64,000 nucleotides of DNA from Verrucomicrobiota bacterium. GTDB lineage: Bacteria > Verrucomicrobiota > Verrucomicrobiia > Limisphaerales > UBA8199. A model generated the notes under the pieces. It searched no databases. It was not told the DNA's origin and worked only from the letters and a program-made list of their open reading frames with translations. A program made the position numbers and the translations under genes. Where the stretch lies: contig JBEKRX010000031.1 of the NCBI GenBank assembly GCA_049518415.1, positions 2,359-66,358 of the forward strand, written 5' to 3'. Positions 24,349 to 55,012 of this stretch are shown here, in pieces (within the stretch, counting starts at the first letter, position 1; every line of letters starts with the position of its first letter).

Positions 24349-25682
24349 AGAGCGGAGGTCGGAAGACAGAGGTCAGAGGTCAGAGGGCGGAAGGCCGAGG
24401 CCGGAAGTCCGAGGTCAGAGGTCAGTGCCTCCGACCTCCGACCTCCGACCTCCGACCTCTGTGCTTTATCTGCGCCGCGCTGGCCGCCGCTGGCGGCAGC
24501 GCTTCGGCCCAGGACGCCCTCCGCCTTTCCCTGAGCTGCCAGTCTGCCGCCTCCCAGCCCCGCCTGGAACTCGAAAACCAACCCTACACCGTCCGTTGGG
24601 GCGATTTGAAGGTCCTCGCCTCCGCTTCGCTGGACGGCGAGTGGAATGACAATGTGAACCTGGCTCACGCCGATCCCCAGCAGGACTTCATCATTCGGCC
24701 GCTGGCCAACTTCGGTGTCTTCTGGCCGGTCACCGAGCTCAATGCCTTGACCTTCTCGCTCGGCGCCGGTTACGAAAAGTTTGTCAGCCACGACCAATAT
24801 GATCGGCCCCTGATCACGCCCGGATCTGCGCTGACCTGGGACATTTTCACCAAGAACCTCCGCATCAATCTCCATGACCAGTTCTCGTACGAGCAGGACC
24901 CGACGGCCTGGGGCGCCATCAGCCGCACCGCCAGGGCCGGCGGATTGGACAATACCCTGGGGGCGATGGCCGTGTGGGACCTGCACGATGTGGTCCTTTC
25001 CTTCGGCTACGACCATTTCAACTTCGTCTCCTCCTCCTCGACCTACGACTACCTGAGCCGCGCTTCCGATTTCCTCCTGCTCCGGGCCGTCTTTAAGGTC
25101 CACCCGGCGGCGACCGCCGGCCTCGAGCTGAGCGGCGGCCCGACCGCTTACGACCAGAAGCTCCTGAGCGACAACGTGACCGCTAGCGCGGGCGGGTTTG
25201 CCGAGTGGCAGGCCACCGAGGTTATCAAACTGCTGGCGAGACTTGGCTTCTATCAATACAGCTTCTCCAACGAAGGCGCGGCTGCCGGGAGCGGCGATCA
25301 ATCCGGCTATTATGCCTCCTTGAACCTGTCCTATCGGCCGAGTCCTAAAATCAGCTACTCGGTGGAGGGCGGTCACGAGGCCTTCATGGGCAACTCCTCC
25401 GCCCTGACCGACCAGTACTACGGCACTGCTTCTGTCAATTGGCGCCTCATTGAGCATATCTCGCTCTCCACCTCGGTTCGGTATGAAACCGCCACACAAC
25501 CCATTGGACCCTTTAGGGACAATTATGACCGCGTGTCCGCCAACCTCAGGTTGTCCTGCCCCATAAAGCAGAAGCTGACCGCCAGCCTGAACTACCGGTA
25601 TTGGCTCAAGACCTCGGGTCTGAGCCAGTTCCTCGATTATGAGCAAAACTGCCTCACCTTGCACCCTGCATACCAGTTTTGA
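24345..25682 (+). CDS. Putative outer-membrane beta-barrel protein of the EPS export module
   Basis: ATGA overlap with the upstream stop. Signal-like LCFICAALAAAGGSASAQD. Alternating beta-strand-like composition and a terminal aromatic residue (...LHPAYQF). The position between the priming GT and the Wza-like gene matches PEP-CTERM-associated OM proteins. The family call is inference. Confidence 0.5.
   Translation: MKSGGRKTEVRGQRAEGRGRKSEVRGQCLRPPTSDLRPLCFICAALAAAGGSASAQDALRLSLSCQSAASQPRLELENQPYTVRWGDLKVLASASLDGEWNDNVNLAHADPQQDFIIRPLANFGVFWPVTELNALTFSLGAGYEKFVSHDQYDRPLITPGSALTWDIFTKNLRINLHDQFSYEQDPTAWGAISRTARAGGLDNTLGAMAVWDLHDVVLSFGYDHFNFVSSSSTYDYLSRASDFLLLRAVFKVHPAATAGLELSGGPTAYDQKLLSDNVTASAGGFAEWQATEVIKLLARLGFYQYSFSNEGAAAGSGDQSGYYASLNLSYRPSPKISYSVEGGHEAFMGNSSALTDQYYGTASVNWRLIEHISLSTSVRYETATQPIGPFRDNYDRVSANLRLSCPIKQKLTASLNYRYWLKTSGLSQFLDYEQNCLTLHPAYQF
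24354..24455. repeat. Heptamer-array inverted repeat (cagaggt x n ... ccgacct x n)
   Basis: The arms gaggtcagaggtcag / ctccgacctccgacctc are imperfectly complementary. It lies in the first ~110 nt of the OM-barrel ORF. Confidence 0.8.
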
Positions 25683-25686
25683 TTCC

Positions 25687-26640
25687 ATGAACGCTCCCCA
25701 AAAACCACGGACCGCGAGGAGTAACCCGCAGAACACGCAGAACACGCGGAATTCAGAACCCTCCCATCTGCCTTTCCGCGTATTCAGCGTATTCCGCGGT
25801 TGCTTCTTCGGCTGCCCCCTGCCTTTCCGCGTATTCAGCGTGTTCTGCGGGTACTTCTTCGGTTGCGCCCTGGTGCTCGCCGCCTTCGGTTCCGCGGCCG
25901 CCGACCCTCGCTTTGCCGACCCCAAGACCTGGTTGCAGGGTCTAAGCAATCAGTGGAACGCCACCTCGCCGGCCCCAACCAATGTCCCTCCGACCAACGC
26001 TGCTCCCCTGACCTCCGACCTCCGACCTCCAACCTCCGCCCCCCCGGCCTCCGGATCTAACACCAACGCCTTCTCCACCATGGACACCCTGGACGACAAG
26101 CACAAGCTGGCCCTGGGCGACCGCCTCAGCTTTCGCATTGTCGAGGACCAGGAAGACCCGAGGGAAACCCTCGCCCCCAAACCGCCTGTCCCCGTCACTG
26201 ATTCAGGCGATGTCGAGGTCCCCTACATCGGGCGGTTTCCGGCCGTCGGCAAGACCTGCAAACAGTTGGCCCGTGAAATCAGAACCGAGCTCGAGAAGAA
26301 ATACTATTACCAGGCCACGGTCATCATCGCCCTCGACCTGGTGACCAGGAGCGGCGGCCGGGTCTATCTCGTGGGCCAAGTGCGGGCCTCCGGGCCCGTT
26401 GAGATTCCGGGCGACGAGGTCTTCACGCTCAGCAAGGCCATCCTGCGCGCCGGCGGCTTCACCGAGTATGCGAACCAGCGCCATGTCAAAGTCACGCGCA
26501 ATGGGCGCGACGCCGCGAACAAAACGCAGACATTCATCGTAAACATGAACGAAGTCTTCGAGAAAGGCAAAACCGAAAGCGACATGAAACTCGAACCCGG
26601 CGACCTGATCTTCGTCCCCCGCCGGCTGGTCATCTTTTAG
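25687..26640 (+). CDS. Polysaccharide export protein (Wza / Poly_export + SLBB type)
   Basis: LALGDRLSFRIVEDQ...VTDSGDVEVPYIGRFPAVGKTCKQLAREIRTELEK.YY...VYLVGQVRASGPVEIPGDEVFTLSKAILRAGGFTEYA...LEPGDLIFVP. The start is uncertain because the first ~60 codons are repeat element copy A. Confidence 0.8.
   Translation: MNAPQKPRTARSNPQNTQNTRNSEPSHLPFRVFSVFRGCFFGCPLPFRVFSVFCGYFFGCALVLAAFGSAAADPRFADPKTWLQGLSNQWNATSPAPTNVPPTNAAPLTSDLRPPTSAPPASGSNTNAFSTMDTLDDKHKLALGDRLSFRIVEDQEDPRETLAPKPPVPVTDSGDVEVPYIGRFPAVGKTCKQLAREIRTELEKKYYYQATVIIALDLVTRSGGRVYLVGQVRASGPVEIPGDEVFTLSKAILRAGGFTEYANQRHVKVTRNGRDAANKTQTFIVNMNEVFEKGKTESDMKLEPGDLIFVPRRLVIF
25724..25867 (-). repeat. 9-mer palindromic element, copy A (inverted relative to B-D, with a partial internal duplication)
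   Basis: ccgcagaacacgcagaacacgcggaattcagaa...ctgcctttccgcgtattcagcgtattccgcggttgcttcttcggctgc, followed by a second ctgcctttccgcgtattcagcgtgttctgcgg. Confidence 0.85.
26008..26040. repeat. Heptamer array cctccga x4 inside the Wza-like ORF (PLTSDLRPPTSAPP)
   Basis: Read directly from the sequence. Same unit as in 24425-24455. Confidence 0.8.
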
Positions 26641-26806
26641 CGTTGACGGTAAGCCGGGTTCCGGCCGCCTTGAACCATTGGCCTGAACCCTGGCTCCTGT
26701 GAGCCTGGCTAAAATAGCGACTACTCGGCGAGTAGATTCGCGCCAAACGAAAAGAGGCCCGCGAATTGACCGGCACGAAGTGTCGGCTGCCCTCTGACGT
26801 CACTCT

Positions 26807-27616
26807 ATGGTCAAGGCGCATTTTGAGACAACCTATGAGGCCCGGGGGGTTCTTGACTCGAGCCTCGAAGCCGTGAAACAACTCATAACTGACTTCGCTG
26901 CGCGGCGCATCCTGGAAGTCGGAGGTGGTGCTCACCCTTCACTCGGCCCGGATTACATTGCCGCACGAGGCCTCGAGTACACCGTGAACGACGCGCGCGA
27001 AGAGGAATTAATGAAGGCCGATTCGACCTATCACAAGCTCCGCATGGAACTTGGCACTGAGGAACCGACGGCACTTTTCAAAGGGCGCTTTGATCTCATT
27101 TTCAGCCGGATCGTTCACGAGCATGTGTACAACATTCAGCGTTTTCACCAGACCATCCATTACATGCTGGCCGGGGGCGGCGCTGCAGTCCATTGCTTTC
27201 CGACATTGTACGCGCTTCCGTTTGTGATGAACAGACTCTTGCCCGAGTGCTCATGCGGCGGGCTTCTCAACTTCTTTGTTCCTGGCTTCACCGAAACACA
27301 TCGCCACTTTAGGGCCTATTACAGGTGGTGTCGTGGTCCCTCGCGCAGGATGATACGGCGGTTCGAGCGAGTTGGATTTGAGGTGGTCGAGTTTCGGGGG
27401 TACTTCGGTCATAGTTACTACCAAACGCGTATGCCCTTGCTCCATAAACTCGAGCGAGCAAAGGCGCGCTGGCTCGCCAAACATCCCATTCCCCTCTTAA
27501 CGAGCTTCTCTTGGGTTGTTTTGCGGAAGCGCAACGTTGATCCTGGAAGACGCATTAGCGACCTGCCCCCGCTCGGCGGAGTCGGCTCGAATCACGCCCC
27601 CGTGGATGTAATCTGA
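26807..27616 (+). CDS. Class I SAM-dependent methyltransferase (probable)
   Basis: ILEVGGGAHPSL (motif I-like), DLIFSRIVHEHV and AGGGAAVHCFP. The assignment is moderate. Confidence 0.55.
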   Translation: MVKAHFETTYEARGVLDSSLEAVKQLITDFAARRILEVGGGAHPSLGPDYIAARGLEYTVNDAREEELMKADSTYHKLRMELGTEEPTALFKGRFDLIFSRIVHEHVYNIQRFHQTIHYMLAGGGAAVHCFPTLYALPFVMNRLLPECSCGGLLNFFVPGFTETHRHFRAYYRWCRGPSRRMIRRFERVGFEVVEFRGYFGHSYYQTRMPLLHKLERAKARWLAKHPIPLLTSFSWVVLRKRNVDPGRRISDLPPLGGVGSNHAPVDVI

Positions 27617-27620
27617 CCGC

Positions 27621-29807
27621 ATGCAGCCTCCTAATTCTGACAATTCCGTCTCCGATGTCCAGGGCGCCCTCCCGGCTCGCGCTTTGGTGCCGGGCAACGG
27701 CTACGTCGACGTCCCGGCCTATCCTGTCTCCCCGCCGGCCTTGCGCTTCCGCCGATATCTCATCTTGCTCCGCAAGAAATGGTGGATCGTACTGCTGAGC
27801 CTCTCGCTATGCAGTGTTCTGGCCGCCGCCTACATCTTGTGGTGGCCTGAGACCTACGTCTCCTATGCCCACCTTTGGAGCATGGGCAGAACTGGCCTCC
27901 GCCTTCCCGAGGGCGGCACCTACGAGGAAGACGCGCAAACCTCCGGCGGCACCCAGGTCGAATTGCTCCAGAGCGGCAGGATGAATGAACGCGCTTTTAA
28001 CCGGATCGTGAGCACCCTCCACCTCCCCGTTCCCACCAATTCCGAGGGCCTGCCTGAACCTGTCAAGATCCGCGTCTCCCAGCTCCCCAAGAGCGCCGTC
28101 TTCGAGATCAAGGCCACGGGCCCAAACGACTCCTATACTCGCGCCTTCCTCGATGCCACTATTGATGAGTTCCTCGCCTTCAAACGCGAGATTCGCGCCA
28201 CTTCAGCCGGTGACACCTATACCTCCGTCTCGGAGCAGATCACCAAACAGGAAACCGACCTCAAAAGCGGCCACGACACCCTCACCGCCTACATGCGCGA
28301 CAACAACGTCGCCGTCCTCGAGGAGCAGGCCAAGGCCGCCAGCGCCTATCTCACGCAGCTCCTCGCCGAATTCTCCCAGCTCAAATTGGAGCATCAGCTC
28401 CTCGAGGCCACCTCGACCGAGGGCCTGTGGGCCCTGGCCGGCCTCACCAATGCCCTCGCCGGCGCTCCGGACCCCCGGAGGCTGGCCGACCCGGCCATGC
28501 CCTCCGCCAGCCCGCCCCCCGAATTCCTCGGCGCCCAGCAGGAACTCGAGAAGCTCCGCATCATGCGGACCCGGCTCAGCAAACATCTCCGGCCGGAACA
28601 CCCCAAGATTGTCAAACTGGACGAGGAGATCTCCCGGGGCGAAAAACTGGTCGAATTCCTGAGCAAACAGAGCCGCGATCAGCTTGCCAACGCGAGGCAG
28701 ACCGTCAAGTTGAAGCTCGACCGGATCCAGGAGACGATCAAAGAATGGGAAGCTAAGGTCAACAGCGCCAGTGAACGTATTGCGCAGTACCAGCGCCTTA
28801 AACTCAATGTCGACCGCCTTCAGGGCCTTCACGAGCGCCTGCTCGGCCTCCTCCAGACGGTCGATGTCACGCGCAACCTCGACCAGGAGAACATTACCAT
28901 CCTGGATCGCGCCTCGGCGCCGAGGCGGGACAAGTCCTCGGTCCCATTCGTCCTCGCGCTAGCCATTTTCCTGGGCCTGGGCGGTGGCCTCGGGTTGGTC
29001 TTCCTCGTGGAAGTCTTGAATGACCGAGTCATGTCGCTGGAAGACCTGAACGGGCGATTCAATGAGTGGGTCGTTGGCCAGGTCCCCGAAGTCGGCAACG
29101 CGAAGAAGAAAAAAAGACCCGCCTTGCTGGATGCGGACGACCGCCGGCACATCTTCGCCGAATCTTACCGCAATATGCGCTCGGCCCTGTTCTACGCCGC
29201 AGTCCCGGAAGAAAAGCCCAAGGCCCTGCTGATCACCAGCGCCATCCCCCGTGAAGGCAAATCTACCGTGGCCGCCAACCTGGCCCGGGCCATCGCCTTT
29301 GCCGGCTCCCGGGTCCTGCTCGTGGATGGCGACCTGCGCCGCGGACTCCTGCACGAACTCTTCGAGCTGCCCCAGGAGCCGGGCTTCGCCGACCTGCTCA
29401 CCCAGGGCGGGGACCTGGCCCGATTCGTCGTGCCCACCTCCGTGCCCAACCTCTCCCTCCTGCCCCGGGGCAAACCGGTGGGCAACTCGGGCGAACTCTT
29501 CCTCGGGGCCGGGTGCGACCGGGTGCTGGCGCAAATCCGTGAGCAATACGACTGCGCCATCATCGACAGCATCCCCGTGTTTGCCGCCGATGACACCACC
29601 AGCCTGGCGCCGAAGGTGGACGGCGTGCTCCTGGTGGTGCGTGGCTCTTATGCGGGCAGCCGGACGATCCGGCGGGCCATGGAATTGCTCTACGAACGGC
29701 AGGCCAAAATTATGGGGCTGGTTTTCAACCGCGCCAACAGCGCCTCCCGCTCATACGAATACTACAAATACGCCGATTACTACCACTCAGCGGGGAAGGA
29801 CCACTGA
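27621..29807 (+). CDS. Polysaccharide co-polymerase / BY-tyrosine autokinase (Wzc/GumC-EpsG type)
   Basis: N-terminal Wzz-like TM + coiled-coil region and a second TM. P-loop kinase domain ITSAIPREGKSTVAANLARAIAFAGSRVLLVDGDLRRG. Tyr-rich C-terminus YEYYKYADYYH. Confidence 0.85.
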   Translation: MQPPNSDNSVSDVQGALPARALVPGNGYVDVPAYPVSPPALRFRRYLILLRKKWWIVLLSLSLCSVLAAAYILWWPETYVSYAHLWSMGRTGLRLPEGGTYEEDAQTSGGTQVELLQSGRMNERAFNRIVSTLHLPVPTNSEGLPEPVKIRVSQLPKSAVFEIKATGPNDSYTRAFLDATIDEFLAFKREIRATSAGDTYTSVSEQITKQETDLKSGHDTLTAYMRDNNVAVLEEQAKAASAYLTQLLAEFSQLKLEHQLLEATSTEGLWALAGLTNALAGAPDPRRLADPAMPSASPPPEFLGAQQELEKLRIMRTRLSKHLRPEHPKIVKLDEEISRGEKLVEFLSKQSRDQLANARQTVKLKLDRIQETIKEWEAKVNSASERIAQYQRLKLNVDRLQGLHERLLGLLQTVDVTRNLDQENITILDRASAPRRDKSSVPFVLALAIFLGLGGGLGLVFLVEVLNDRVMSLEDLNGRFNEWVVGQVPEVGNAKKKKRPALLDADDRRHIFAESYRNMRSALFYAAVPEEKPKALLITSAIPREGKSTVAANLARAIAFAGSRVLLVDGDLRRGLLHELFELPQEPGFADLLTQGGDLARFVVPTSVPNLSLLPRGKPVGNSGELFLGAGCDRVLAQIREQYDCAIIDSIPVFAADDTTSLAPKVDGVLLVVRGSYAGSRTIRRAMELLYERQAKIMGLVFNRANSASRSYEYYKYADYYHSAGKDH

Positions 29808-29950
29808 CGGCGGACGAAGGACTACGAGACTACTGACCACTGACCACTAACCACGGACTACTGACTACGGTGGTCCGTGGTCAGTGGTCCGTGGTCCCGT
29901 GGTTCCGTGGTCCGTGGTCCGTGGTCCGTGGTCCGTAGTCCCTTGTCCCT
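29798..29950. repeat. Heptamer-array hairpin (tgaccac/ggactac arm against ggtccgt arm) starting in the wzc stop codon
   Basis: 29851-29870 pairs with 29875-29894 (18 Watson-Crick + 2 G-U pairs, loop tggt). The flanking arrays extend the complementarity. Confidence 0.85.
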
Positions 29951-29953
29951 TAT

Positions 29954-30403
29954 ATGCGAGATTATACGAAAATTGAAGCCTGGAAGCTGGCGGACGACCT
30001 GACGGTGGCAGTTTATTCATGCACCCGGTCTTTCCCTAGGGAAGAATTGTACGGGCTGACAAGCCAAATCCGGCGTGCGGCCTATTCTGTTCCGGCAAAT
30101 ATCGCTGAAGGCTCCTCACGAGAGAGCAAGCGCGATTACCTGCACTTTCTCTACATTGCAAGAGGCTCCTTGACCGAAACGCAGTACTTCATCCATCTCG
30201 CGCGCCGCCTGGGCTATCTATCAGAAGCCGACGCCGAGCAGCTCCACGCGCAGACGAAGTCCACTTTTGCATGCCTGCACGGCCTGATTCGAGCCGTTGA
30301 GAAAGAAACCGGGAGATTAAGCACCGTGGTGGCCGCGATCACCAGTGCCGTCGTCCTCTGCCTTTGGTCCCGTGGTCCGTGGTCCGTGGTCAGTAGTCCG
30401 TAG
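29954..30403 (+). CDS. Four-helix-bundle protein (23S rRNA intervening-sequence protein / Avd-like family)
   Basis: EAWKLADDLTVAVYSCTRSFPREELYGLTSQIRRAAYSVPANIAEGSSRESKRDYLHFLYIARGSLTETQYFIHLARRLGYL is a near-consensus match to this family. The last ~20 codons run into repeat R'. Confidence 0.85.
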   Translation: MRDYTKIEAWKLADDLTVAVYSCTRSFPREELYGLTSQIRRAAYSVPANIAEGSSRESKRDYLHFLYIARGSLTETQYFIHLARRLGYLSEADAEQLHAQTKSTFACLHGLIRAVEKETGRLSTVVAAITSAVVLCLWSRGPWSVVSSP

Positions 30404-30410
30404 TCCCTTC
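30365..30410. repeat. Heptamer array R' (ggtccgt units); direct repeat of 29905-29950
   Basis: 30386-30410 is complementary to 29816-29840 (24 pairs with one bulge on each side). Confidence 0.8.
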
Positions 30411-30419
30411 CGCCCCCCC

Positions 30420-31877
30420 ATGCTCGAGCTCGCGCTCACTCTGCAACTGCTCTTTTTCCTGGCGATCGCCTTGGTTTTCTTCGGTTCACGCCAAGCCTCG
30501 ATTTTTCACCCCTGCACGGTTTACCTGGCCTTCCACGGAATTGTCTTTGTCATTAGGCCCCTTTTTGCTCATTACCTTCACTTCGACCATTCCTGGCAAT
30601 ATATGGCCTTCTGGCCCAGGGATGAGGATTGGCTCAAGACGCTTGTTGTTACCTCATTAGCCTTGGGGGTATTTGTCACCGCCTGTCTCTCCGCTTCTCG
30701 GGGCCTGCCCAGCCAAGTGGGGCCTGCTGCAACCCTGCCTACGCCCGAACTCAGAACCGCGTTCCTGCTCACCGGTGCTCTGCTCGCCCCATTGCTCGCT
30801 TATTCTATTTATGCGACCAGACACGGAATTGCCGGTGAGCGTGTCGGCGCCGTTTACATCATGACGGGCACCAGCGGTTATGTGAACGACGCTCAGCACA
30901 TGGCCGTCCCACTGCTGGCGATTTTCGTCTGGGCTTTTGCCTTTAGGTGGTGGACCCTCGTTCCGGTCACATTGTATCTTGCCTACCGCGCCTGGTTTGG
31001 ATGGTCCCGCTGGACGATAATAATCTGCGTGTTCATGCTGTTTTTGGTTTATTGCTGGCACCAGCGCCGCAAGTGGCTGCCCGTTCGCTTGCTTGCCCTC
31101 TTGCTGCCCCTGTTCATCCTTTTCAACTGGCTAGGTGACAACCGGGATGTATTTAAGAGCCTTCTCCAAGGTCAAGAACCAGCTCCCAAAGTCCTGTCCG
31201 GCAACGGCAGCGCCGCGGAAAAGATCCGGACCAAGCTCGACAAACACGACCTCGCCAGTTTCGACTTTCTGACTTACGTATTGGCTGCGGTTCCCGAACG
31301 AACCGGAACCTACAATTACGGTCTTCAGTACCTGCAGTTATTCACCGAACCCATCCCTCGGAAACTATGGAAGGGGAAACCGGCCGGCGCGCCCTTCGGG
31401 CGGCTGAACCTCAATGCCTATGGCAATTTCCTCGGCTTGACGGTCACTCTCCTGGGGGACGGGTGGCTTAGTGGCGGCTGGGTCGGCTTGGTCCTGACCG
31501 TCGGGGCGGCGGGATGGGCCTTGGGACGCGCTCACCGTTGGTTCTCGCGCCACCAGGCCAATGCTTTTATCGCCTTCTCGTACTGCGGGATTTTGGCAGC
31601 GACCATTCAGCTCTATCGCGACGGCGGCATTTCCGTTTTCAAATTCCTCCTTTGGCTCCTCCTGCCCATCCTCATCTGGAGGGCGGTGTATCGGACGATG
31701 AACGCGCAATCCCCGTCCGTGTCTGCAAGCCCTGCAACCGGCGCCTCTTACCCTCTCCCTCTGCGCTACCGCCCTGGGCTCTCCGCCCCCGTCCGCTCCT
31801 ACCGCGGACGCCCGCGGCTCAGTTGGAGAAGAATTCAACGCCGCTGGCCGCCACCCGCCCGATGGCGCCAGGTGTGA
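30420..31877 (+). CDS. Polytopic membrane protein, putative Wzy-type repeat-unit polymerase
   Basis: ~10-12 hydrophobic segments and a large loop region. It sits in a locus that otherwise lacks a polymerase. ATG 30420 (MLELALTLQLLFFLAIALVFF) was chosen over the ORF-track start 30345, which lies in the repeat. The C-terminal ~55 aa look like read-through. Confidence 0.5.
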   Translation: MLELALTLQLLFFLAIALVFFGSRQASIFHPCTVYLAFHGIVFVIRPLFAHYLHFDHSWQYMAFWPRDEDWLKTLVVTSLALGVFVTACLSASRGLPSQVGPAATLPTPELRTAFLLTGALLAPLLAYSIYATRHGIAGERVGAVYIMTGTSGYVNDAQHMAVPLLAIFVWAFAFRWWTLVPVTLYLAYRAWFGWSRWTIIICVFMLFLVYCWHQRRKWLPVRLLALLLPLFILFNWLGDNRDVFKSLLQGQEPAPKVLSGNGSAAEKIRTKLDKHDLASFDFLTYVLAAVPERTGTYNYGLQYLQLFTEPIPRKLWKGKPAGAPFGRLNLNAYGNFLGLTVTLLGDGWLSGGWVGLVLTVGAAGWALGRAHRWFSRHQANAFIAFSYCGILAATIQLYRDGGISVFKFLLWLLLPILIWRAVYRTMNAQSPSVSASPATGASYPLPLRYRPGLSAPVRSYRGRPRLSWRRIQRRWPPPARWRQV

Positions 31878-31911
31878 GGGCGGCAACCCGCCACCCAATT
31901 GCCCGCGTTTA

Positions 31912-32073
31912 ATTCCAATGAGCTTCCAAGATGAGACTAAGGCGCGCAGGATTTTGGGCCTCTGGCGAGGCGCGAGCGAGGCGCATACCCGCAGCGGTCT
32001 GTAACGAGCGAGCAACGAAGCCAGAGGCCCAAAAGACAAACGAATTAGTCTCATCTTGGAAGTGATTTGGAAT
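31912..32073. repeat. ~160-nt compound inverted repeat (long hairpin)
   Basis: cttccaagatgagactaa (31923-31940) is perfectly complementary to ttagtctcatcttggaag (32045-32062). The inner helix attttgggcctctggc (31951-31966) against gccagaggcccaaaag (32020-32035) matches 15/16. The outer helix is attccaa/tttggaat. Confidence 0.85.
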
Positions 32074-32424
32074 AAGCCCTTTGATGTGTCTGTGCCGGCT
32101 GATCAGCATGCTTCTCCTGGCCGTGGCTTGCCACCTTCGGGCAGGATCGCCCTCCTCTGGAGTAATTTCGGCCCGTACCACCATGCGCGAGCCTCCGCCC
32201 TCCGGAAACTGGCCCGCCCCGCCGAGGTTTTTCCCATCCAGATTGGTTCCGAGTCAACGGTCTATGACTGGAGTCGTGCTCCAGGCGCCCTGGCGGCTCG
32301 CACAAAGGCCGGGAGCGGGCCAGCCCGCTGGCAGCTATCGAGCCTTGTAGTTCCGCTCTTGACCGACACTATTGACGAGAGCCACGAGCATAGTGCACCT
32401 CCTTTTCGGCGTCAAAAGTCATGA
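32056..32424 (+). pseudogene. Possible N-terminal glycosyltransferase remnant
   Basis: Only RIALLWSNFGPYHHARASAL...VFPIQIGSES resembles a GT N-terminus. The rest is low-complexity and there is no catalytic region. Confidence 0.2.
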
Positions 32425-33116: not shown

Positions 33117-33177
33117 CCCGCCCGGTACGCCCCTAGCTGGGGGGTGGCGGAGGTCCTGCTGCCTCTCACGATGGACT

Positions 33178-38034: not shown

Positions 38035-38064
38035 AGCGCGAAGATATAAGGCTTTTGTTCCCTT

Positions 38065-40050: not shown

Positions 40051-40053
40051 TCT

Positions 40054-40908: not shown

Positions 40909-40996
40909 CAAATTAGCCCGAAGATCATCACCCAGCGCTGCTGCTTTTTGCCATATCGGTTTCCGCGTGTGTGATTAGCAACAAGGCACAAGAGGA

Positions 40997-47259: not shown

Positions 47260-47288
47260 AGCGCCCGGGCCGCCGCCGCCTTGAAACC

Positions 47289-48866: not shown

Positions 48867-49030
48867 AGGGAAGCCTTTGGATCCCCAGCGTGGGCTGCCT
48901 GGGGGAGGGGACCTTTTGCCTGCAGGCGATAGCCTGGACGGTTTCGCAAGGCGATCTCCGTCATCGGCCCAGCGAGCCCGGAAGAGGCGGTGCGCGTGCT
49001 CCGGAAGGAGTTGGAGAAACTGATTGTTTT

Positions 49031-50695
49031 ATGAAAAAGCTCTTCATTGTCATCCTGTCCTTGTGCGTGATCTTCGTGACCGGCTTTGCCGGTTACCGCG
49101 GTTACAAGATCTGGAGACAGAAGCATTTTGTGAAAATGGCGCGGGCCTTCATTGTGAAGGGCGACGCCGCCAATGCGGTGCTCTGCCTGCGCCAGGCGCT
49201 GGCGTCCAACCGCAACAACCTGGAGGCCTGCCGCCTGATGGCTGACTTCGCGGAATTGGCCGGTTCGCCCCAGGCGGTGCTCTGGCGCAGCCGGGTCGTG
49301 GATTTGGAACCGAACTCGCTGACCAACCGGCTGGCCCTGGCAAGGACCGCGCTGGCCGCCGGCGACGCCGACCTCGCCAACAAAACGCTGGACGGTGTGG
49401 ACGAGGCCGGCAAGAAAACGGCCGTGTTTCAGAGGGTGGCCGGCGCGGCGGATCTCGCGGCCAGACGGTTCTCGGAGGCCGAAACACATTTCTCCGAGGC
49501 CGCGCGCCTGGAACCGGCCAACCCCGTCTCGCAGTTGAACCTCGCCACGCTCCGCCTCAGCAAGAGCGATCCGGCGGCGTCAACTGAGGGGCGGGCGGTG
49601 TTGCAGGCGCTCTGCACCAACCTGGCGGTCCGCTGTGATGCCCAGCGCCAACTCACCCGGGACGCCTTGCGGCACACGAACTTGCCCGGCGCATTCGCCT
49701 TTTCCCAGGAGTTGCTCAAGGATACCAACTCGGTCTTCGCCGACCGGATGCTGCACCTGGATATTCTGCGCGCGACGACCAATGCCCAGCAGGAGAGTCT
49801 CCTGTCCGCGTTGCAAAAGGAGTCGGTCAACAACCCGGCCAAGGCCTCCGAGGTGGCCAAGTGGATGTTGAGGACGACCGGCAAGCCGGAGGCGGCGCTG
49901 GCCTGGATGGGCGCCCTCCCGCCTGCGACCCGCACCAACCTGCCCGTGCCAATGATCCAGGCGGACTGTTACATCGCCCAGAAGAATTGGACCGCTCTCC
50001 AAACCAATTTGGCGCAACAGAACTGGTCCGACCTGGATTGCCTGCGGCTGGCCTGCCGCGCCCGCGCCTTCAAGGAACAGAACATGACCGCTACGGCCAA
50101 AACGGAGTGGACCGCGGCGATGAAAGCGACCGGGAACCGCCGCGAGCTCCTGGTCCAACTCCTGAACACGACCGGCTTATGGAACTGGCCGCAGCAGCAG
50201 GAGGATGTGCTTTGGGCCATCGTCAATACCTACCCCAGGGAGAGTTCCGCGGTCCGGGTGTTGTCGAGCCGGCTCTATGCGGCCGGCAGGACCCGCTCGT
50301 TGCTGACGCTTTATGGCGTCGCGCTGCAAAATGACCCGGGCAACCCCGGCCTGATGAACAACCTGGCGATGACTGCCCTCCTGCTGGAGTCGTGGGATAA
50401 AAAGCCGCACGACCTGGCACGCGAAGCCTACGCCAAGGCGTCCACGAACGCGGCCTTCGTCTCCACTTACGCCTATTCCCTGCTGGTGCAGCAGAAGCCG
50501 GCGGAGGCGCTGAAGACGATCGAGCAGCTCAGCCCGCAGCAACTGGAGGATCCCGGCATCGCTGCTTATTATGGCTTGATCCTGAAGGGCGCCGGCAACG
50601 CGCCGAAGGCCAAATCATACCTGGACCTCGCCTCGAAGGCCAGGTTGCTGCCCGAGGAGCAGAAGCTCGTCGAAAAAGCCCGCAGAGGAACCTGA
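49031..50695 (+). CDS. TPR-repeat protein following the exosortase (PrsT-like context)
   Basis: MKKLFIVILSLCVIFVTGFAGY anchor and TPR-like helices throughout. Any PrsT relationship is inferred from position only. Confidence 0.7.
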   Translation: MKKLFIVILSLCVIFVTGFAGYRGYKIWRQKHFVKMARAFIVKGDAANAVLCLRQALASNRNNLEACRLMADFAELAGSPQAVLWRSRVVDLEPNSLTNRLALARTALAAGDADLANKTLDGVDEAGKKTAVFQRVAGAADLAARRFSEAETHFSEAARLEPANPVSQLNLATLRLSKSDPAASTEGRAVLQALCTNLAVRCDAQRQLTRDALRHTNLPGAFAFSQELLKDTNSVFADRMLHLDILRATTNAQQESLLSALQKESVNNPAKASEVAKWMLRTTGKPEAALAWMGALPPATRTNLPVPMIQADCYIAQKNWTALQTNLAQQNWSDLDCLRLACRARAFKEQNMTATAKTEWTAAMKATGNRRELLVQLLNTTGLWNWPQQQEDVLWAIVNTYPRESSAVRVLSSRLYAAGRTRSLLTLYGVALQNDPGNPGLMNNLAMTALLLESWDKKPHDLAREAYAKASTNAAFVSTYAYSLLVQQKPAEALKTIEQLSPQQLEDPGIAAYYGLILKGAGNAPKAKSYLDLASKARLLPEEQKLVEKARRGT

Positions 50696-50726
50696 TCCGT
50701 AGGGCGGGGCAACCATCGAACCGCAA

Positions 50727-50771
50727 AAGAGCCCTGAGGGCCGCCGCGCTCTCAGGGCTCTTGCGTTTATT
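50727..50771 (+). terminator. Terminator-like hairpin after the TPR gene
   Basis: aagagccctgag-N12-ctcagggctctt followed by gcgtttatt (weak U-tract). Confidence 0.4.
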
Positions 50772-50780
50772 CGGCGAGCT

Positions 50781-50873
50781 GCAGCCGAAGAAGGAACCGC
50801 AGAATACGCTGAATACGCGGAAAGGCAGATGGCGGAGTTCTGAATTCTGCATATTCGGCGTATTCTGCGGTTC
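50781..50873 (+). repeat. 9-mer palindromic element, copy B
   Basis: gaaccgcagaatacgctgaatacgcgg ... ctgcatattcggcgtattctgcggttc. The outer 16 bp are perfectly complementary. Confidence 0.9.
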
Positions 50874-50946
50874 ACTCCCCCGCCCCACCCAACCCACAGG
50901 CATCCCTATCTGTGGCATGTGTCCAGTCGGTGGCCTGCGGAATCTC

Positions 50947-50985
50947 TGTCTGAATTGTGATCTAAGATGTCCGATTGCTAGATAG
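50947..50985 (+). promoter_or_regulatory. PEP-CTERM upstream element, orphan copy C1
   Basis: tgtctgaattgtgatctaagatgtccgattgctagatag. No gene follows it. Confidence 0.45.
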
Positions 50986-51126
50986 TTTGTGGTGGCGGGT
51001 TGCCGCGGCCTGCCGTCATCACAGGCCGCGCGCTTCCAGCTTCCAGCAGCACCACCATCCCCTGTGCCCCGCTCGCGAACAAAGGGGAACTGATCCCTGT
51101 AGCCGGGCCAACCATCGAACCGCACA

Positions 51127-51171
51127 AGAGCCCTGAGGGCCGCCGCGCTCTCAGGGCTCTTGCGTTTACTC
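51127..51171 (+). terminator. Terminator-like hairpin (duplicate of 50727-50771)
   Basis: Same stem, followed by gcgtttact. Confidence 0.3.
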
Positions 51172-51179
51172 GGCCGAGC

Positions 51180-51283
51180 CGCAACCGAAGAAGCAACCGC
51201 AGAATACGCTGAATACGCGGAAAGGCAGACGGTCCCGATTCGGAATCGGGAAATTCCGCGTATTCCGCGTGTTCTGCGGTTCG
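51180..51283 (+). repeat. 9-mer palindromic element, copy C
   Basis: ccgcaaccgaagaagcaaccgcagaatacgctgaatacgcggaaaggcaga...ccgcgtattccgcgtgttctgcggttc. Confidence 0.9.
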
Positions 51284-51356
51284 CTCCTCCGCCCCACCCA
51301 ACCCAAAGACATCTCTATCTGTGGCATGTGTGCGGTCGGTGGCCTGCTGAATCTCT

Positions 51357-51397
51357 GTCTGAATTGTGATCTAAGATGTCCGGCGTTTGGATAGACG
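51357..51397 (+). promoter_or_regulatory. PEP-CTERM upstream element C2
   Basis: tgtctgaattgtgatctaagatgtccggcgtttggatagac. 142 nt before ATG 51540. Confidence 0.5.
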
Positions 51398-51539
51398 CGC
51401 ACGCGCGGTTATGGGATAAGTAAATCAGAAATCCTCGGGTTTTGCTCGGGAACGGGGCTGGCTTGGCCCCGCCGAACCGAGAGCGGGCACGAAACAGGCC
51501 GGCGAAATGCCGGCGGCCATTGACAAAACAGTCGAATCT

Positions 51540-52229
51540 ATGAAAAGGGCTTACAAACTGGCGGCAGCGCTTGCTCTCCTGATGAGCGTCGTCTCGGCGC
51601 GGGCGGCTATGTTAGCTAATACGGGAGCCGCTGTTGATGCTGATGGTAGCGACAAAAACTGGACGCTGGCCTCCGTGGTTCCGGGCGACAAGCTGGGCGA
51701 CGATCCATCTGTACCATACGGACTGAGCCTGCCCAATGCCTATGTCGTCAATGACGATGGCAACTTTCCGTTTAACGGCTATTGGCTGCGCAACAGTCTC
51801 GCGTCCAGGTGGATCACTTATGCCGCTCCAATGTACACGGGGGGAGATATAGGCCGCACGTTCGATTACCGACTGGCTTTCACGGCGACGGCGGATGGTG
51901 TCGTCAATTTCCGATGGGCATCAGACAATTCAAGCGAGGTGACACTCGACGGCACCAAAATCGCCAACAATGGCCAACCTAACCCAAATAACTATACGAC
52001 CTTCAACAGTTGGTCATACGGGACATTCAACGTGACGAAAGGCACAGGATACACATTGGACGTCGACGTGTTGAATATCGGCCAGGACTCCGGCAACCCC
52101 ACCGGCATGCGGTTCGAGGTTGTCCCCGAGGCCAGCACGATGTTCGCCGGCGCCGGCGCGCTCGGGCTCGTTCTCCTCGGCCTCGGTGTCCACTCGAAAC
52201 GCTCGGCCGTTCTCCGAATGGGTAAGTAA
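51540..52229 (+). CDS. PEP-CTERM sorting-domain protein 1
   Basis: Signal peptide MKRAYKLAAALALLMSVVSARA. C-terminus VVPEASTMFAGAGALGLVLLGLGVHSKRSAVLRMGK (PEP motif + TM + basic cluster). Confidence 0.85.
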   Translation: MKRAYKLAAALALLMSVVSARAAMLANTGAAVDADGSDKNWTLASVVPGDKLGDDPSVPYGLSLPNAYVVNDDGNFPFNGYWLRNSLASRWITYAAPMYTGGDIGRTFDYRLAFTATADGVVNFRWASDNSSEVTLDGTKIANNGQPNPNNYTTFNSWSYGTFNVTKGTGYTLDVDVLNIGQDSGNPTGMRFEVVPEASTMFAGAGALGLVLLGLGVHSKRSAVLRMGK

Positions 52230-52348
52230 GCCCCTCGCAAAGCAGTTCTTTCCGCTCGACGGGCATGCCCAACGGCCTGCCTGTTTGCTTTTCAGCCTGA
52301 GCCAGGTTCCCGCGTGGCCGGACCCCTTCCCGCCGTTGCTGCGCCTGG

Positions 52349-52443
52349 CCGCAACCGAAGAAGCAACCGCGGAATACGCTGAATACGCGGAAAGGCAGAC
52401 AGCGGAGTTCTGAATTCCGCGTATTCCGCGTGTTCTGCGGTTC
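52349..52443 (+). repeat. 9-mer palindromic element, copy D (between convergent PEP-CTERM genes)
   Basis: ccgcaaccgaagaagcaaccgcggaatacgctgaatacgcggaaaggcagacagcggagttctgaattccgcgtattccgcgtgttctgcggttc. Confidence 0.9.
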
Positions 52444-52471
52444 AGTCCTCCTAACAGGAGCGGGATTGAAA

Positions 52472-52506
52472 GCAAAAATCAGGCAGGCTTTGAGAGCCTG
52501 CCTGAT
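52472..52506 (-). terminator. Rho-independent terminator of PEP-CTERM gene 2
   Basis: The minus strand reads atcaggcaggct-ctcaa-agcctgcctgat followed by ttttt. 35 nt after the stop. Confidence 0.7.
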
Positions 52507-52540
52507 CGATCTGAGAAGCGTGGAGGACCCGGTTACTGAA

Positions 52541-53110
52541 TTATTGTCCGATTCTAATGACCCCTGAGCGCTTGGACCGGAACATGCCCAACAGGACCAA
52601 CCCGAGTGCGCCGATGCCGGCGACCATGGTCGTGGGCTCGGGGACAAGCGTGACGGTTGCCGGCCCAGTATATGTCAACGTGTAACCGACGCCGTTGTCA
52701 TACGCATAGAGACTATAGTTACCGGGGCTGTTGCCCCAGAGATTGATCTCGCGGACGCCTGAGGTCCACAACAGCAGACCATAGGTGGTGAGGTAAGGGT
52801 CCTTGCCGGGGAACAACTGGTTGTCGTATATGAACGCACCAGCTGGGGAGACAGTCGGCGCAGTGCCATTCGGGTTGAAATACAACGAGTAGCTGCCCAC
52901 GACCCCGGCGGTAGTCGAAGCGGTAATGTCGAGGGTGCCGCTGATGGCCGTGTAGCTGCCGTCGTCATTGGGATTGGCCGTCAGTTGGCCGTTGGCAGCG
53001 TTGCCCGACGGATCGGAGTAGGTGAGGTCGAAGACGACCGAGGCCTGAGCCTGAACCGCGAGCCCCAAGGCGCCCGCCAATAATGCTGCTTGTAATGTTT
53101 TTAATCTCAT
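52541..53110 (-). CDS. PEP-CTERM sorting-domain protein 2
   Basis: ATG 53110 gives MRLKTLQAALLAGALGLAVQAQA with the RBS-like gaaaggaagca upstream. C-terminus LVPEPTTMVAGIGALGLVLLGMFRSKRSGVIRIGQ. Confidence 0.85.
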   Translation of the reverse strand: MRLKTLQAALLAGALGLAVQAQASVVFDLTYSDPSGNAANGQLTANPNDDGSYTAISGTLDITASTTAGVVGSYSLYFNPNGTAPTVSPAGAFIYDNQLFPGKDPYLTTYGLLLWTSGVREINLWGNSPGNYSLYAYDNGVGYTLTYTGPATVTLVPEPTTMVAGIGALGLVLLGMFRSKRSGVIRIGQ

Positions 53111-53249
53111 TGCTTCCTTTCTGTTTTTGACCGTCGCGGAAAGCGGCTTCCGGCCAGGCGTGAAAGCCACAAACGTTTCCTGCCCTGCACGCGAGTGGTC
53201 TGGTTATTGTTCATACTGTGGCCCCATTTTGCCACGGCGCGCCATCTGC

Positions 53250-53290
53250 GTCTATCGCATTACCAGACATCTTCGCTCAGTTATCGGACA
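53250..53290 (-). promoter_or_regulatory. PEP-CTERM upstream element C3
   Basis: The sense strand reads tgtccgataactgagcgaagatgtctggtaatgcgatagac. 139 nt before ATG 53110. Confidence 0.5.
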
Positions 53291-53550
53291 CGCAACATTC
53301 CGGCGGCACGGCTGCAGTTCAGTCCCAACTGACGCCTCCCCCGTCCGAAATGTGACAAGTCATGTCCGACTCCTGTCTTATACTGCCCCTGCCCTGTCCG
53401 CCGGTGATAGCCCGCCTGAATGGCCGAAATGTGACTCATGCACCATGTCGTAAATACTCGCGGAATTCGCGCTTGCCTTTGGCTCGTAGTTCCGCTTGTT
53501 CGGCCCACAGGGGACTTCAACCCCGTAGGGTCTGAGTCATGTCCGGCATA

Positions 53551-53582
53551 CAACAAAAAGGCAGGCCAAGCTGGCCTGCCTT
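53551..53582 (-). terminator. Rho-independent terminator of PEP-CTERM gene 3
   Basis: The minus strand reads aaggcaggcca-gct-tggcctgcctt followed by tttgttg. 30 nt after the stop at 53613. Confidence 0.7.
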
Positions 53583-53612
53583 GTGTCGTAATTGACGAGG
53601 TTGGTCTTGGGG

Positions 53613-54329
53613 TTAGTTGCCAATCTTGAGGACGCCAGAGCGGCGGCGCAGTCCGAGCAGAACCAAGCCGAGCGCGCCGATGCCCGCCACCATGGTGGTC
53701 GGCTCGGGAACAATGGCTAACTGGTCCTGGTTGAGGTGATAAGTCACGCCACCAGTTCCTTGCTTATCCGTGGGCGAGGATCCAGGCGGCCCATCGAACA
53801 GGTTCAGAGCCACCACGTTGTATGCACCGCCGGAGTCGCCCACCAATTGTGCATCGGTCATGCCCAACGCTGTTCGTGCTTGCCCCAAGTACGGGTTGGC
53901 CGCGTTGTAATCGACTTCTCCTTCGAGCATCCAGATCGCGGTTTGAAGAACGCCTGCATTCGCCTGGCGATTTACTCCGAAGTAGTTCGCCAGCGTGCCC
54001 GCACGGAACTGGCTGTAAAGCCAAGCGGTGCCAATGGAAATGTTATCCATCGCAATGCCGGTGTTCAGGTCGGTTGTGTCAGCACCCACTCCGCCAGCCA
54101 CAGCGCCGGTGTTTTTGTAGTACTTGTATGTTGCGCCCGGGAGGAACCACTCCTGATCCTCAATACAGAATGTTTGGAAGGTACCGATGGGGCTCACCAC
54201 CCGAAATTCACCCCCCTGGCCGTTTTCATACCCCGACCCATTCACGATGAGCGTTCCGTCATAAGCGGCGAACAGATTGGGGGCGACCATCGCCCCTGCC
54301 AACCCTACTATCAGACATAGCTTTCTCAT
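53613..54329 (-). CDS. PEP-CTERM sorting-domain protein 3
   Basis: Signal peptide MRKLCLIVGLAGAMVAPNLFA. C-terminus IVPEPTTMVAGIGALGLVLLGLRRRSGVLKIGN. Confidence 0.85.
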   Translation of the reverse strand: MRKLCLIVGLAGAMVAPNLFAAYDGTLIVNGSGYENGQGGEFRVVSPIGTFQTFCIEDQEWFLPGATYKYYKNTGAVAGGVGADTTDLNTGIAMDNISIGTAWLYSQFRAGTLANYFGVNRQANAGVLQTAIWMLEGEVDYNAANPYLGQARTALGMTDAQLVGDSGGAYNVVALNLFDGPPGSSPTDKQGTGGVTYHLNQDQLAIVPEPTTMVAGIGALGLVLLGLRRRSGVLKIGN

Positions 54330-54483
54330 TTGCTATCCTTTCTTCTGCTGGCCTTCGCCGAAAGTCATATCTGGTTCGACGTCAGAGCCTGGTAAAACTC
54401 TCTACACAACAAAGGCTGTTCCTGGTTCATTAGGGGTTTTCCCAATGATAACCGGGACTATTTATAGAGCGGTAACGACAATT

Positions 54484-54525
54484 GATCTATCCCATTGCCG
54501 GACATCTTAGCTCACTTATCAGACA
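54484..54525 (-). promoter_or_regulatory. PEP-CTERM upstream element C4
   Basis: The sense strand reads tgtctgataagtgagctaagatgtccggcaatgggatagatc. 154 nt before ATG 54329. Confidence 0.5.
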
Positions 54526-54577
54526 TAGATGCATTGCCTGATTTAATATGAGAGTCGGCCGCGTGACTTCCACTTTA

Positions 54578-54603
54578 CGGACAGCACCGATCACATTTCA
54601 GAC
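54578..54603 (-). promoter_or_regulatory. PEP-CTERM upstream element, partial copy C5
   Basis: The sense strand reads gtctgaaatgtgatcggtgctgtccg (21/26 match to C2). It lacks the GATAGA part. Confidence 0.35.
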
Positions 54604-54818
54604 GACGCCTTGTCCTGGTAGATTCGTGAACCGGGTCAAGGCAGCCGCCCAAGTTCAGGTTGCCGGCCGCCACCAGGGCATTCTGGACGCTCTTCTGGAG
54701 CAGAGGGGCGCAGCGCATTGAGCACCGCCAACCCTGGCGCGTTGCCGCTCTTTTAAGCGTCGAGCGCCCTGAGCTGCGCCGAAAACTCGTGCCGGCCGGA
54801 GGGAGGACGAGGATGGAG

Positions 54819-54862
54819 TGTGGAGGAGGGGAAAAGGTCTGAACTTTGAACGTTGAACGGGA
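54819..54862. repeat. Direct repeat e1 (gtggaggaggggaaaaggtctgaactttgaacgttgaacggg)
   Basis: Pairs with 54960-55012. Ends in a 7-mer array. Confidence 0.75.
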
Positions 54863-54959
54863 GAGACCGGCTGGCGGGCGGGAGGGGTGTCCAATAAGGA
54901 GCCAGGGGATTGCCTAAAATGGGGCCACGGGGCGGGCGGAGGGGCGCGGCGGATCGGGG

Positions 54960-55012
54960 GTGGAGGATGGGAAAATGTCTGACCTTTGACCTCTGACCTC
55001 TGATCACTGAAC
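54960..55012. repeat. Direct repeat e2 (gtggaggatgggaaaatgtctgacctttgacctctgacctctgatcactgaac)
   Basis: Its tgacctc heptamer array is the reverse complement of the unit in 24368-24385. Confidence 0.75.

Follow-up and report, generated by a model that had tools for sequence, protein, structure and literature searches.

The window analysed here, a 64,000-nucleotide stretch of contig JBEKRX010000031.1 from a Verrucomicrobiota-like metagenome-assembled genome (MAG) from peat, contains an exopolysaccharide (EPS) operon whose gene junctions carry tandem arrays of 7-nt units. These heptamer arrays are probably the arms, or the leftover arms, of small, selfish, palindromic cassettes that are built on a gene of the PF05635 family and resemble the intervening sequences (IVSs) of 23S rRNA. 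A full cassette would have one PF05635 four-helix-bundle gene in the loop and heptamer arrays as the arms of the stem, which is the architecture of ORF-bearing 23S rRNA IVSs, but placed in mRNA operons. Such elements would persist where insertion is tolerated, at cistron junctions, in the n-regions of signal peptides and in low-complexity linkers. Several observations stand behind this reading: the gene is associated with the arrays, unit and polarity are conserved across phyla, sites occur both filled and empty, deletion derivatives exist, and the arrays are stable within the population. Heptamer arrays are over-represented in many bacteria without an accepted origin or role, and the window and its relatives give them a concrete link to a gene.

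Within the window, positions 29798-30406 (cassette D) would represent a full cassette inserted at the wzc-wzy junction, 24355-24459 (hairpin 1) a cargo-less hairpin of another cassette lineage, and 26010-26038 a single remaining arm. The arrays at 54840-55014 are probably degenerate remnants, the least certain of these assignments.

PF05635 genes and their flanking arrays

The genome surveyed (6.4 Mb, 63% G+C, 133 contigs) holds 24 PF05635 matches, 21 of which have an array of period 6-8 within 250 nt, against 651 of 4285 genes (15%) in the background (Fisher p 1e-14). Arrays on both sides were found at 10 of the 24 PF05635 genes but at only 56 of the 4285 (1.3%). Read in gene orientation, four cassette families have a unit U upstream and its reverse complement, rc(U), downstream: GCGAATG...CATTCGC, a hexamer family TCCTAA...GATTAG, ATTGAGN...NCTCAAT and the window's own GGACCAC/GTGGTCC. 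Alignment gave no conserved stretch common to the four families. Cassette-internal sequence recurs at ~145 loci that are gene-less and retain the arms, in a continuous size series of 24-436 nt; these are deletion derivatives of cassettes, comparable to miniature inverted-repeat transposable elements (MITEs).

The hexamer family is represented by 24 pairs of terminal inverted repeats (TIRs) of 118-591 nt, with the arrays lying inside the outer TIRs (core GCATTTCACTTTTTTGG). At least 8 of the 24 copies have flanking duplications of 10-14 bp (at most one mismatch) 0-4 nt from both ends, where ~0.01-0.03 per element would be expected by chance. Since the duplications are far above chance and the arrays are inside the TIRs, at least one cassette family has transposed together with its arrays. 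Elements of this kind are found, for example, at C17:103468-103996, C111:2743-3333, C36:27058-27221 and C86:14771-15133, the long members comprising arrays plus PF05635, and one example of a flanking duplication is CTTGAACCTCAG at a bioF-bioA site.

Beyond this genome, 185,579 species genomes were scanned with the window's four-helix-bundle protein alone as the query. The 80 homologue loci are mostly from Verrucomicrobiota, the others being labelled Planctomycetota, Kiritimatiellia, Omnitrophota, Elusimicrobia, Bacteroidia and Acidobacteriota, and the window protein is 52-84% identical to homologues in other phyla. At 68 of the 80 loci a period-7 or period-8 array lies directly next to the gene. 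The core GAC[CT]A is present in 33 of 53 upstream arrays and its complement in 38 of 57 downstream arrays, none of which has the sense form; among the arrays of this genome its background is 1.3%. This distribution shows that the PF05635 gene family takes unit core and polarity with it across phyla. In MAGs labelled Acidobacteriota (Pyrinomonadaceae, Candidatus Acidoferrum) the four-helix-bundle protein has copies of 76-77% identity, whereas the outer-membrane (OM) barrel protein of the window reaches only 33-38% identity even within the genus (same-genus genomes among 40 relatives), a contrast best explained by spread of the four-helix-bundle gene through horizontal transfer.

Cyanobacteria account for at least 23 (Nostoc 10, Calothrix 4) of the 26 records that a tblastn search of 72,556 plasmids matched. 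Eight plasmid genes were inspected; five have inverted heptamer arrays on both sides (AGGGTGT/CTACACC, AGGGAAC/CTGTTCC, TCAGAAT/ATTCTGA, TCAGGAG/CTCCTGA and GGTGACA/CTGTCAC) and three have other array layouts. Two of the eight array-flanked plasmid genes lie between cas6 and cas4 (L109, Anabaena sp. 90 pANA02; L110, Pseudanabaena galeata pPg_01), and 23S_rRNA_IVP (PF05635) genes in cas loci have already been described (PMC3936711).

Many PF05635 copies in the surveyed genome are pseudogenes split by small perfect palindromes (gtcccgcagggcgggac, tcccgacttgtcggga, tcccgattcggaatcggga), for example at C45:5503-5733, C39:59665-59904 and C84:4779-4958. These palindromes form a further family of tiny hairpins.

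Arrays in the EPS operon of the window and its relatives

A metagenome scan with Wzc yielded 16 related loci, which were mapped by tblastn and Tandem Repeats Finder (TRF). The 3' junction of wzc is empty in the closest relative by Wzc (L111, 78% Wzc identity), where an 88-nt spacer has no array and no four-helix-bundle gene. In L113 (Wzc 63%) the junction holds (GGACCGT)x9.7, a four-helix-bundle gene 74% identical to that of the window and (TGGTCCT)x13.9, in the canonical order U...rc(U) and starting inside the Wzc C-terminus KDH*. A PF05635 gene lies between AAAACAG...AAAGTTG/AAAGCTG arrays in L116 (Wzc 63%), others have TTTCAGC...AAAGCTG arms in L117 and L118 (Wzc 67%), and in L124 (Wzc 49%) the arms are 8-mers, CTGAAATC...ATTTCAGC. 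One lineage thus has an empty Wzc 3' junction, and elsewhere at least three cassette lineages occupy it. The otherwise empty spacer of L111 carries a different small palindrome at 6110-6165 (ccctctccccatcggatggggagaggg), of a kind common in these phyla.

The main reason for regarding hairpin 1 as orphaned cassette arms comes from L112, in which a PF05635 gene (E 9e-30) lies between (CAGAGGT/CAGAAGT)n and (CGACCTC/TGACCTC)n, the units of hairpin 1; no four-helix-bundle gene of this lineage remains in the surveyed genome. The right-arm unit of hairpin 1 is found in the genome only at 24428-24459 and 26010-26038, and the kinship of these two arrays is real because the unit is unique to the locus. 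Immediately ahead of the Wza domain, L111 has a two-armed (CAGAGGT)x4.1 ... (CCTCTGA)x7.9 in place of the window's lone array 26010-26038, which is probably the surviving arm of such a hairpin. The L111 hairpin at the junction of the priming glycosyltransferase (GT) and OM-barrel genes carries an extra CCTCTGT array.

The features of the window are collected in Table 1. TRF, with which its period-7 arrays were located, returned rows at every place where the earlier note on this DNA had reported them. That note also held that complementary arrays face each other and can fold. Compared with 200 dinucleotide shuffles, this is true of the two complementary pairs: the region of hairpin 1 (24340-24470) has a minimum free energy (MFE) of -70.8 kcal/mol (z -5.6), and the left arm and proximal right arm of cassette D form a ~65 bp stem (29795-29944, MFE -104.8 kcal/mol, z -10.6), and in neither case did any of the 200 shuffles fold as well. 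It is not true of the three solitary arrays, at 26010-26038 (z -0.15 on its own), 54840-54859 (z +0.23, no further copy in the genome) and 54978-55014 (z +1.93, no partner arm nearby). In the MFE structure of the whole stretch 29790-30425 (636 nt, z -6.45) the distal array of cassette D pairs with the outer left arm and encloses the four-helix-bundle gene, the last codons of which reach into that array. Most window arrays are heterogeneous, with 70-89% matches in TRF, and cassette D contains a perfect run of five GTGGTCC units. The reverse-complement relation claimed for the tgacctc and cagaggt arrays is exact (tgacctctgacctc at 54987-55000, gaggtcagaggtca at 24370-24383).

Table 1. Arrays of the window and the genes that adjoin them.
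Feature	Position	Strand	Description	Basis
Priming sugar transferase gene	22900-24348	+		PF02397 match
ATGA overlap	24345..24348	+	OM-barrel ATG (24345-24347) overlaps TGA (24346-24348) of the priming sugar transferase	Sequence
Hairpin 1, left arm	24355..24425	+	~10 mixed GAGGTCA/GAGGTCG/GAAGTCC heptamers	TRF, 10.1 copies, 73% matches
Hairpin 1, right arm	24428..24459	+	(CGACCTC)x4.6, complementary to left arm	TRF, 100% matches
9-mer inverted arrays (separate class)	25723..25872	+	CGCAGAACA ... TTCCGCGTA	TRF; hairpin z -5.65
Solitary array	26010..26038	+	(GACCTCC)x4, unit and strand as in hairpin 1 right arm	TRF
Cassette D, left arm	29798..29870	+	(GGACCAC/TGACCAC/GGACTAC)~10	TRF, sequence
Cassette D, proximal right arm	29870..29941	+	(GTGGTCC)x10	TRF, 89% matches, score 112
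Four-helix-bundle gene	29954..30403	+	PF05635 (23S rRNA intervening-sequence protein family); distant bAvd similarity	Pfam E 6.6e-37
Cassette D, distal array	30365..30406	+	(GTGGTCC)x6, direct repeat of proximal right arm, complementary to left arm	TRF
Wzy-like polymerase gene	30420..31877	+	Start ATG 30420 (MLELALTLQ...)	
Solitary array	54840..54859	+	(TGAACKT)x2.9, divergent intergenic region 5' of FN3/MBG gene	TRF score 33
Solitary array	54978..55014	+	(TGACCTY)x5, reverse complement of hairpin 1 left-arm unit	TRF, sequence

The placement of the arrays at gene junctions, as the earlier note had it, was borne out. An ATGA overlap joins the priming sugar transferase and OM-barrel genes at 24345, the stop codon of Wzc (29805-29807) lies inside the first units of the cassette D left arm (AAG GAC CAC TGA), and the distal array ends 13 nt before the ATG of Wzy. 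At the Wzy start, ATGCTCGAG(G/C)TCGC and the next codons are kept in L111 without a preceding array; the true start is therefore 30420, and the array 30365-30406 is intergenic and outside Wzy.

Other arrays are carried inside reading frames. The sole canonical in-frame start of the OM-barrel protein is the ATG at 24345, with an aaggag Shine-Dalgarno sequence just 5' of it, and hairpin 1 begins 10 nt later. Its left arm is translated as ...GGRKTEVRGQRAEGRGRKSEVRGQ in the n-region of the signal peptide, and a normal H-region and an AQ|DAL-type cleavage motif follow downstream. The earlier note's description of odd N-termini ahead of normal H-regions is thus correct; OM-barrel orthologues without arrays have short, ordinary n-regions. 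The arms of hairpin 1 and its 2-nt loop ('tg') add up to 105 nt, or 15 units, equal to 35 codons, and the frame is therefore kept; counted from the OM-barrel ATG, a conserved caggac lies at a distance of 165 nt (window) or 159 nt (L111), each a multiple of three although the unit counts differ. Only insert lengths that preserve the frame have thus survived within ORFs.

The Wza-like protein shows the same arrangement. Its N-terminus, MNAP, is conserved in the window, L111 and L112 and is followed by 9-mer and 7-mer arrays; past them come an H-region and an ADPxxWLxxLxxQW motif, which in L116 and L117 stands after a plain MRSTLLLLFVSLLAAP signal peptide with no array. The array 26010-26038 is read in frame as PLTSDLRPPTS within a Pro/Thr-rich linker, and the L111 counterpart as ...TSQRSEVRGQRS...PLTSDLRPLTS. 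The 9-mer arrays at 25723-25872 are likewise in frame, as …NPQNTQNTRN…PFRVFSVFRG… in the n-region of the Wza-like signal peptide. The units of this 9-nt class are CGCAGAAYA ... TTCYGCGTA, with further copies at 50798-50869, 51198-51278 and 52368-52439, in the region of the PEP-CTERM gene. Heptamer arrays are also present inside the Wzc reading frame of relatives (L112 3953-6316, L113 1697-1860, L114 2692-2775, L121 878-1005); among them are (CAGAGGT)x14 and (CTCCGAC)x18, and those of L112 are translated in frame (…NSQPSTLNSQL…).

By Pfam, the neighbouring genes of the window encode a PF02397 protein, a Wza-like exporter (PF02563/SLBB), a Wzc-like kinase, the PF05635 protein and an MBG/FN3 protein. 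No Rfam family matched in the window.

Distribution, stability and origin of the arrays

A census of the whole genome, the check proposed in the earlier note, showed an excess of such arrays. Period-7 TRF rows with a score of at least 35 number 584 in the genome and 18 in a third-order Markov simulation of the same size (~30-fold), and at a score of at least 45 there are 267 against 0, while for periods 10 and 11 genome and simulation are equal. Merging gave 676 heptamer loci with 141 canonical units, and the density of arrays in the window is only ~2x the genome average. Of these loci 55% fall in the 16% of the genome outside gene calls, although both fractions are approximate, as the calls were made by codon usage and so miss atypical EPS genes and over-extend 5' ends. 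By the same approximate calls, half of the arrays (50%) are no more than 100 nt away from a gene boundary, where random placement would put 25%; starts and stops have equal shares. Given the excess over the simulation and the skewed placement near genes, heptamer arrays in this genome are genome-wide and non-random. Period-9 rows are also far above the simulation (756 against 79). The longest heptamer array, at C21:99412-99778, comprises ~45 units of CCAATAG/CCAAGAG/CCAACAG with a higher-order period of ~80 nt.

Inverted arrays might also have carried ordinary genes, such as the OM-barrel gene, as cargo between them. This was rejected as a general rule: inverted same-unit pairs with a gap of at least 600 nt number 33, with no excess over the 24.6 (maximum 36) of label shuffles.

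Several observations weigh against deriving the arrays from PF05635 cassettes. Only 108 of the 676 heptamer loci adjoin recognisable remnants of the genome's four cassette families, so that most arrays are orphans and a cassette origin for them is an extrapolation. Neither cassette D nor hairpin 1 contains a transposase, has a second copy in the genome or shows a target duplication against the diverged empty site. Cassette D is also non-canonical: two direct (GTGGTCC)n arrays enclose its gene, and the complementary arm lies upstream of both, as though recombination had placed the gene in the right arm of a pre-existing hairpin. Hairpin 1 has an orthologue in L111, directly after an identical ccaccgaaaggagcggtATGAagagc and with a left arm of 7.4 units against 10.1 in the window, and is therefore old rather than recently mobile. 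For the arrays at 54840-55014 there is no demonstrated link to any cassette. Lastly, the array-only duplexes of homologous loci do not favour the sense strand, the antisense duplex being the more stable at 27 of 40 loci (p 0.03); nothing therefore points to selection on mRNA structure. A sense/antisense comparison of the whole flanks was uninformative. The palindromes look like DNA-level features, and their consequences at the RNA level may be incidental.

Among other explanations, the arrays could be cis-elements selected by the host, with hairpins that tune the stability or processing of EPS mRNA in the manner of repetitive extragenic palindromic (REP) sequences and bacterial interspersed mosaic elements (BIMEs), or units that bind a regulator, and PF05635 genes as passengers. 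The hairpin at the GT/OM-barrel junction does stand at the identical position in a species whose flanking proteins are 79-88% identical, the GAGGTCA unit recurs in the EPS loci of at least 6 of the 16 related metagenome contigs, and repeat families of Geobacter have been read as regulatory sites (PMC2700814). However, positions, unit counts and even unit types vary freely at orthologous junctions, many relatives are array-less at a given junction (wzc/wzy in L111, the Wza n-region in L116 and L117), and unit and polarity follow the four-helix-bundle gene family across phyla, not the type of host operon. The proximity of arrays to gene boundaries, which would suit cis-elements, would arise anyway from purifying selection against disruptive insertions. 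We consider this explanation unlikely.

A little less likely still is a generic slippage bias towards heptamers, in which arrays would have no common origin and PF05635 genes would insert preferentially into existing array hairpins as landing pads. The apparent insertion of the window gene into the right arm of an existing hairpin fits such a process, as do the 84% of heptamer loci without recognisable cassette sequence, the 141 canonical units, and the local clustering of same-unit arrays in direct orientation (153 against 34 in shuffles); a heptamer excess in many bacterial genomes is, moreover, cited in PMC4692102. Against it, the arrays of the hexamer family are inside TIRs and target duplications and hence mobile with the element, the gene family passes on its unit core and strict polarity across phyla, and the cargo-less elements of the deletion series retain the cassette leader and tail.

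Length variation was assessed on 20 contigs from ENA, JGI and Logan assemblies that encode the exact protein of the neighbouring methyltransferase. One (L014) matches the window at 100% identity for 8.8 kb, both hairpins included, and in another (L015) a single base of wzy is different. Three Logan contigs show no difference as far as the right arm of the second hairpin, where they end at 29933, further assemblies cover 26010-26038 unchanged, and five assemblies agree fully in a 106-nt array elsewhere (C7). Some assemblies from the same population carry a version of the array C21:99412-99778 that is shorter by 77 or 84 nt; this could be real variation or assembly collapse of the higher-order repeat. 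The assemblies are consensus sequences that hardly differ by SNPs and probably stem from a single peat population; they exclude high-frequency switching visible in the consensus but leave room for minority variants. The single difference in L015 (position 8104, window 30910; ENA ERZ27250060) is a 1-nt deletion in a C-run (CCC to CC) that shifts the wzy frame and moves the called wzy start 600 nt later; it could reflect a naturally occurring wzy-off variant or a mistake in the assembly.

The slippage-prone switch suggested earlier, whereby slipped-strand mispairing of 7-nt units would make EPS export phase-variable through the frame of the OM-barrel or Wza-like protein or through leader structure, is very improbable: seven is not a multiple of three, two arrays stand in reading frames right past start codons, short perfect runs exist (CCTCCGA x4.6, GTGGTCC x5) and species differ in unit counts, yet unit counts are the same in all covering assemblies, the heterogeneity of the units suppresses slippage, the frame is kept in both species despite their different lengths, and the 77- and 84-nt differences at C21, the one instance of variation among assemblies, lie in a higher-order repeat that short-read assemblers collapse.

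Processing and relation to known elements

If the arrays are cassette arms, their transcripts would form long duplexes. The arm duplexes of the window span 30-65 bp, the array-only duplexes at 41 homologous loci average ~41 bp and -64 kcal/mol, and the genome encodes RNase III (C68). The enzyme would cut these duplexes in the transcript, excising or insulating the cassette and splitting the operon mRNA; cleavage across 29798-30406 would free the four-helix-bundle mRNA and part wzc from wzy, and hairpin 1 might act as a processing or pause site at the GT/OM-barrel junction. Processing of the stems by RNase III is plausible by analogy with the Coxiella IVS, the one studied case in the PF05635 family, in which RNase III cuts the 28-bp stem that encloses the ORF (PMC4990558). 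More broadly, and tentatively, PF05635 genes with inverted arrays of 6-8 nt might constitute one class of self-contained element, in which the arrays would serve as a register-tolerant excision stem in any transcript, whether rRNA or mRNA, and as binding sites for the element's own protein, and bacterial heptamer arrays, among them the short tandemly repeated repetitive (STRR) sequences and the ~680 of this genome, would largely be its living or dead arms.

The 23S rRNA IVSs of Leptospira and Coxiella burnetii (S23p) share with cassette D a PF05635 ORF in the loop of a terminal-inverted-repeat stem, and they too are sporadic elements, proposed to be horizontally transferred (PMC4990558). They differ in that the window element lies between wzc and wzy rather than in an rRNA helix, and its stems are tandem arrays of 30-70 nt that allow many pairing registers. 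Excision is only proposed here, and cargo-less hairpins are translated within host ORFs; the hairpin at 24355-24459 has no ORF and only its 2-nt loop.

The likeness to STRR sequences of heterocystous cyanobacteria, also raised in the earlier note, holds in part. Those sequences, catalogued since 1990, have units such as CCCCA(A/G)T, TTGGTCA and CAACAGT in Calothrix and Nostoc. Both kinds are dispersed tandem heptamers with hundreds of copies per genome, located mostly between or at the ends of genes and unexplained in function; T[AG]GTC, the core of TTGGTCA, occurs in downstream arms of the window's cassette family, and PF05635 genes on Nostocales plasmids stand between inverted arrays of this kind. 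The cyanobacterial restriction and the canonical units do not carry over. The host here is Verrucomicrobiota-like, with the closest homologues of the window genes in Verrucomicrobiota MAGs; there are 141 unit types plus 6-, 8- and 9-nt classes, and only the TGGTC core of STRR2 is shared (cassette D). The arrays here are, in addition, paired into hairpins and tied to a gene family.

REP hairpins stabilise upstream mRNA. REP, BIME, REPIN and MITE elements resemble the window elements as small, multi-copy, palindromic, non-coding derivatives in the intergenic regions of operons, and the hexamer family of this genome has TIRs and 10-14-bp target duplications. Here, in contrast, the arms are tandem repeats rather than a unique palindrome, and full-length members carry a gene that is not a transposase. 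Mobilisation of the REP-RAYT type was considered and rejected: the genome has 18 PF01797 genes (Y1 transposase, RAYT/IS200-type), none flanked by matching arrays and one near a cassette, a further difference from REPIN-RAYT systems. With the contingency loci of Haemophilus and Neisseria the arrays share non-triplet units in or just 5' of surface-structure genes; unlike them, they have heterogeneous units, complementary pairs, a frame conserved between species and no length polymorphism among assemblies.

Tandem arrays of three to five 7-8-nt units are also known from Geobacter metallireducens (PMC2700814), Xanthomonas (GGGAATC) and Nostoc (GGGGA(T/C)T) (PMC4692102). They often occur as opposite-strand pairs at variable distance, between and within genes, with extensive variation in length and sequence between related species (PMC2700814, PMC4692102). 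Those families were, however, read as regulator sites, regulatory RNAs or G-quadruplexes, and neither PMC2700814 nor PMC4692102 links them to PF05635. Heptamer over-representation and STRR sequences (PMC4692102, PMC2700814) and PF05635 in rRNA IVSs (PMC4990558) have already been described, and no publication connecting heptamer arrays with the PF05635 family was found in the searchable literature. Added here are a genome-wide census, a deletion series, arms and target duplications shared within one genome, a junction that is multiply filled or empty, in-frame carriage in signal peptides, and the assignment of hairpin 1 as orphan arms. On this evidence the gene family of rRNA intervening sequences would also be carried by cassettes that enter or leave one operon junction in different lineages and decay to gene-less hairpins, some even carried in frame inside signal peptides.

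For annotation, the arrays lead to N-termini that are spurious or too long; they also interrupt short-read assemblies and can give rise to chimeric joins. Several short contigs end within arrays, for example at window 29933. In L013 (position 1-1623, ENA ERZ27249969) the sequence switches inside hairpin 1, at window 24430, to an unrelated upstream sequence. This foreign part, which the MAG lacks, carries an ADH-family gene with a GGAAGCC/AGAAGCC array at its end; the join is either chimeric, by way of the arrays, or a real recombinant.

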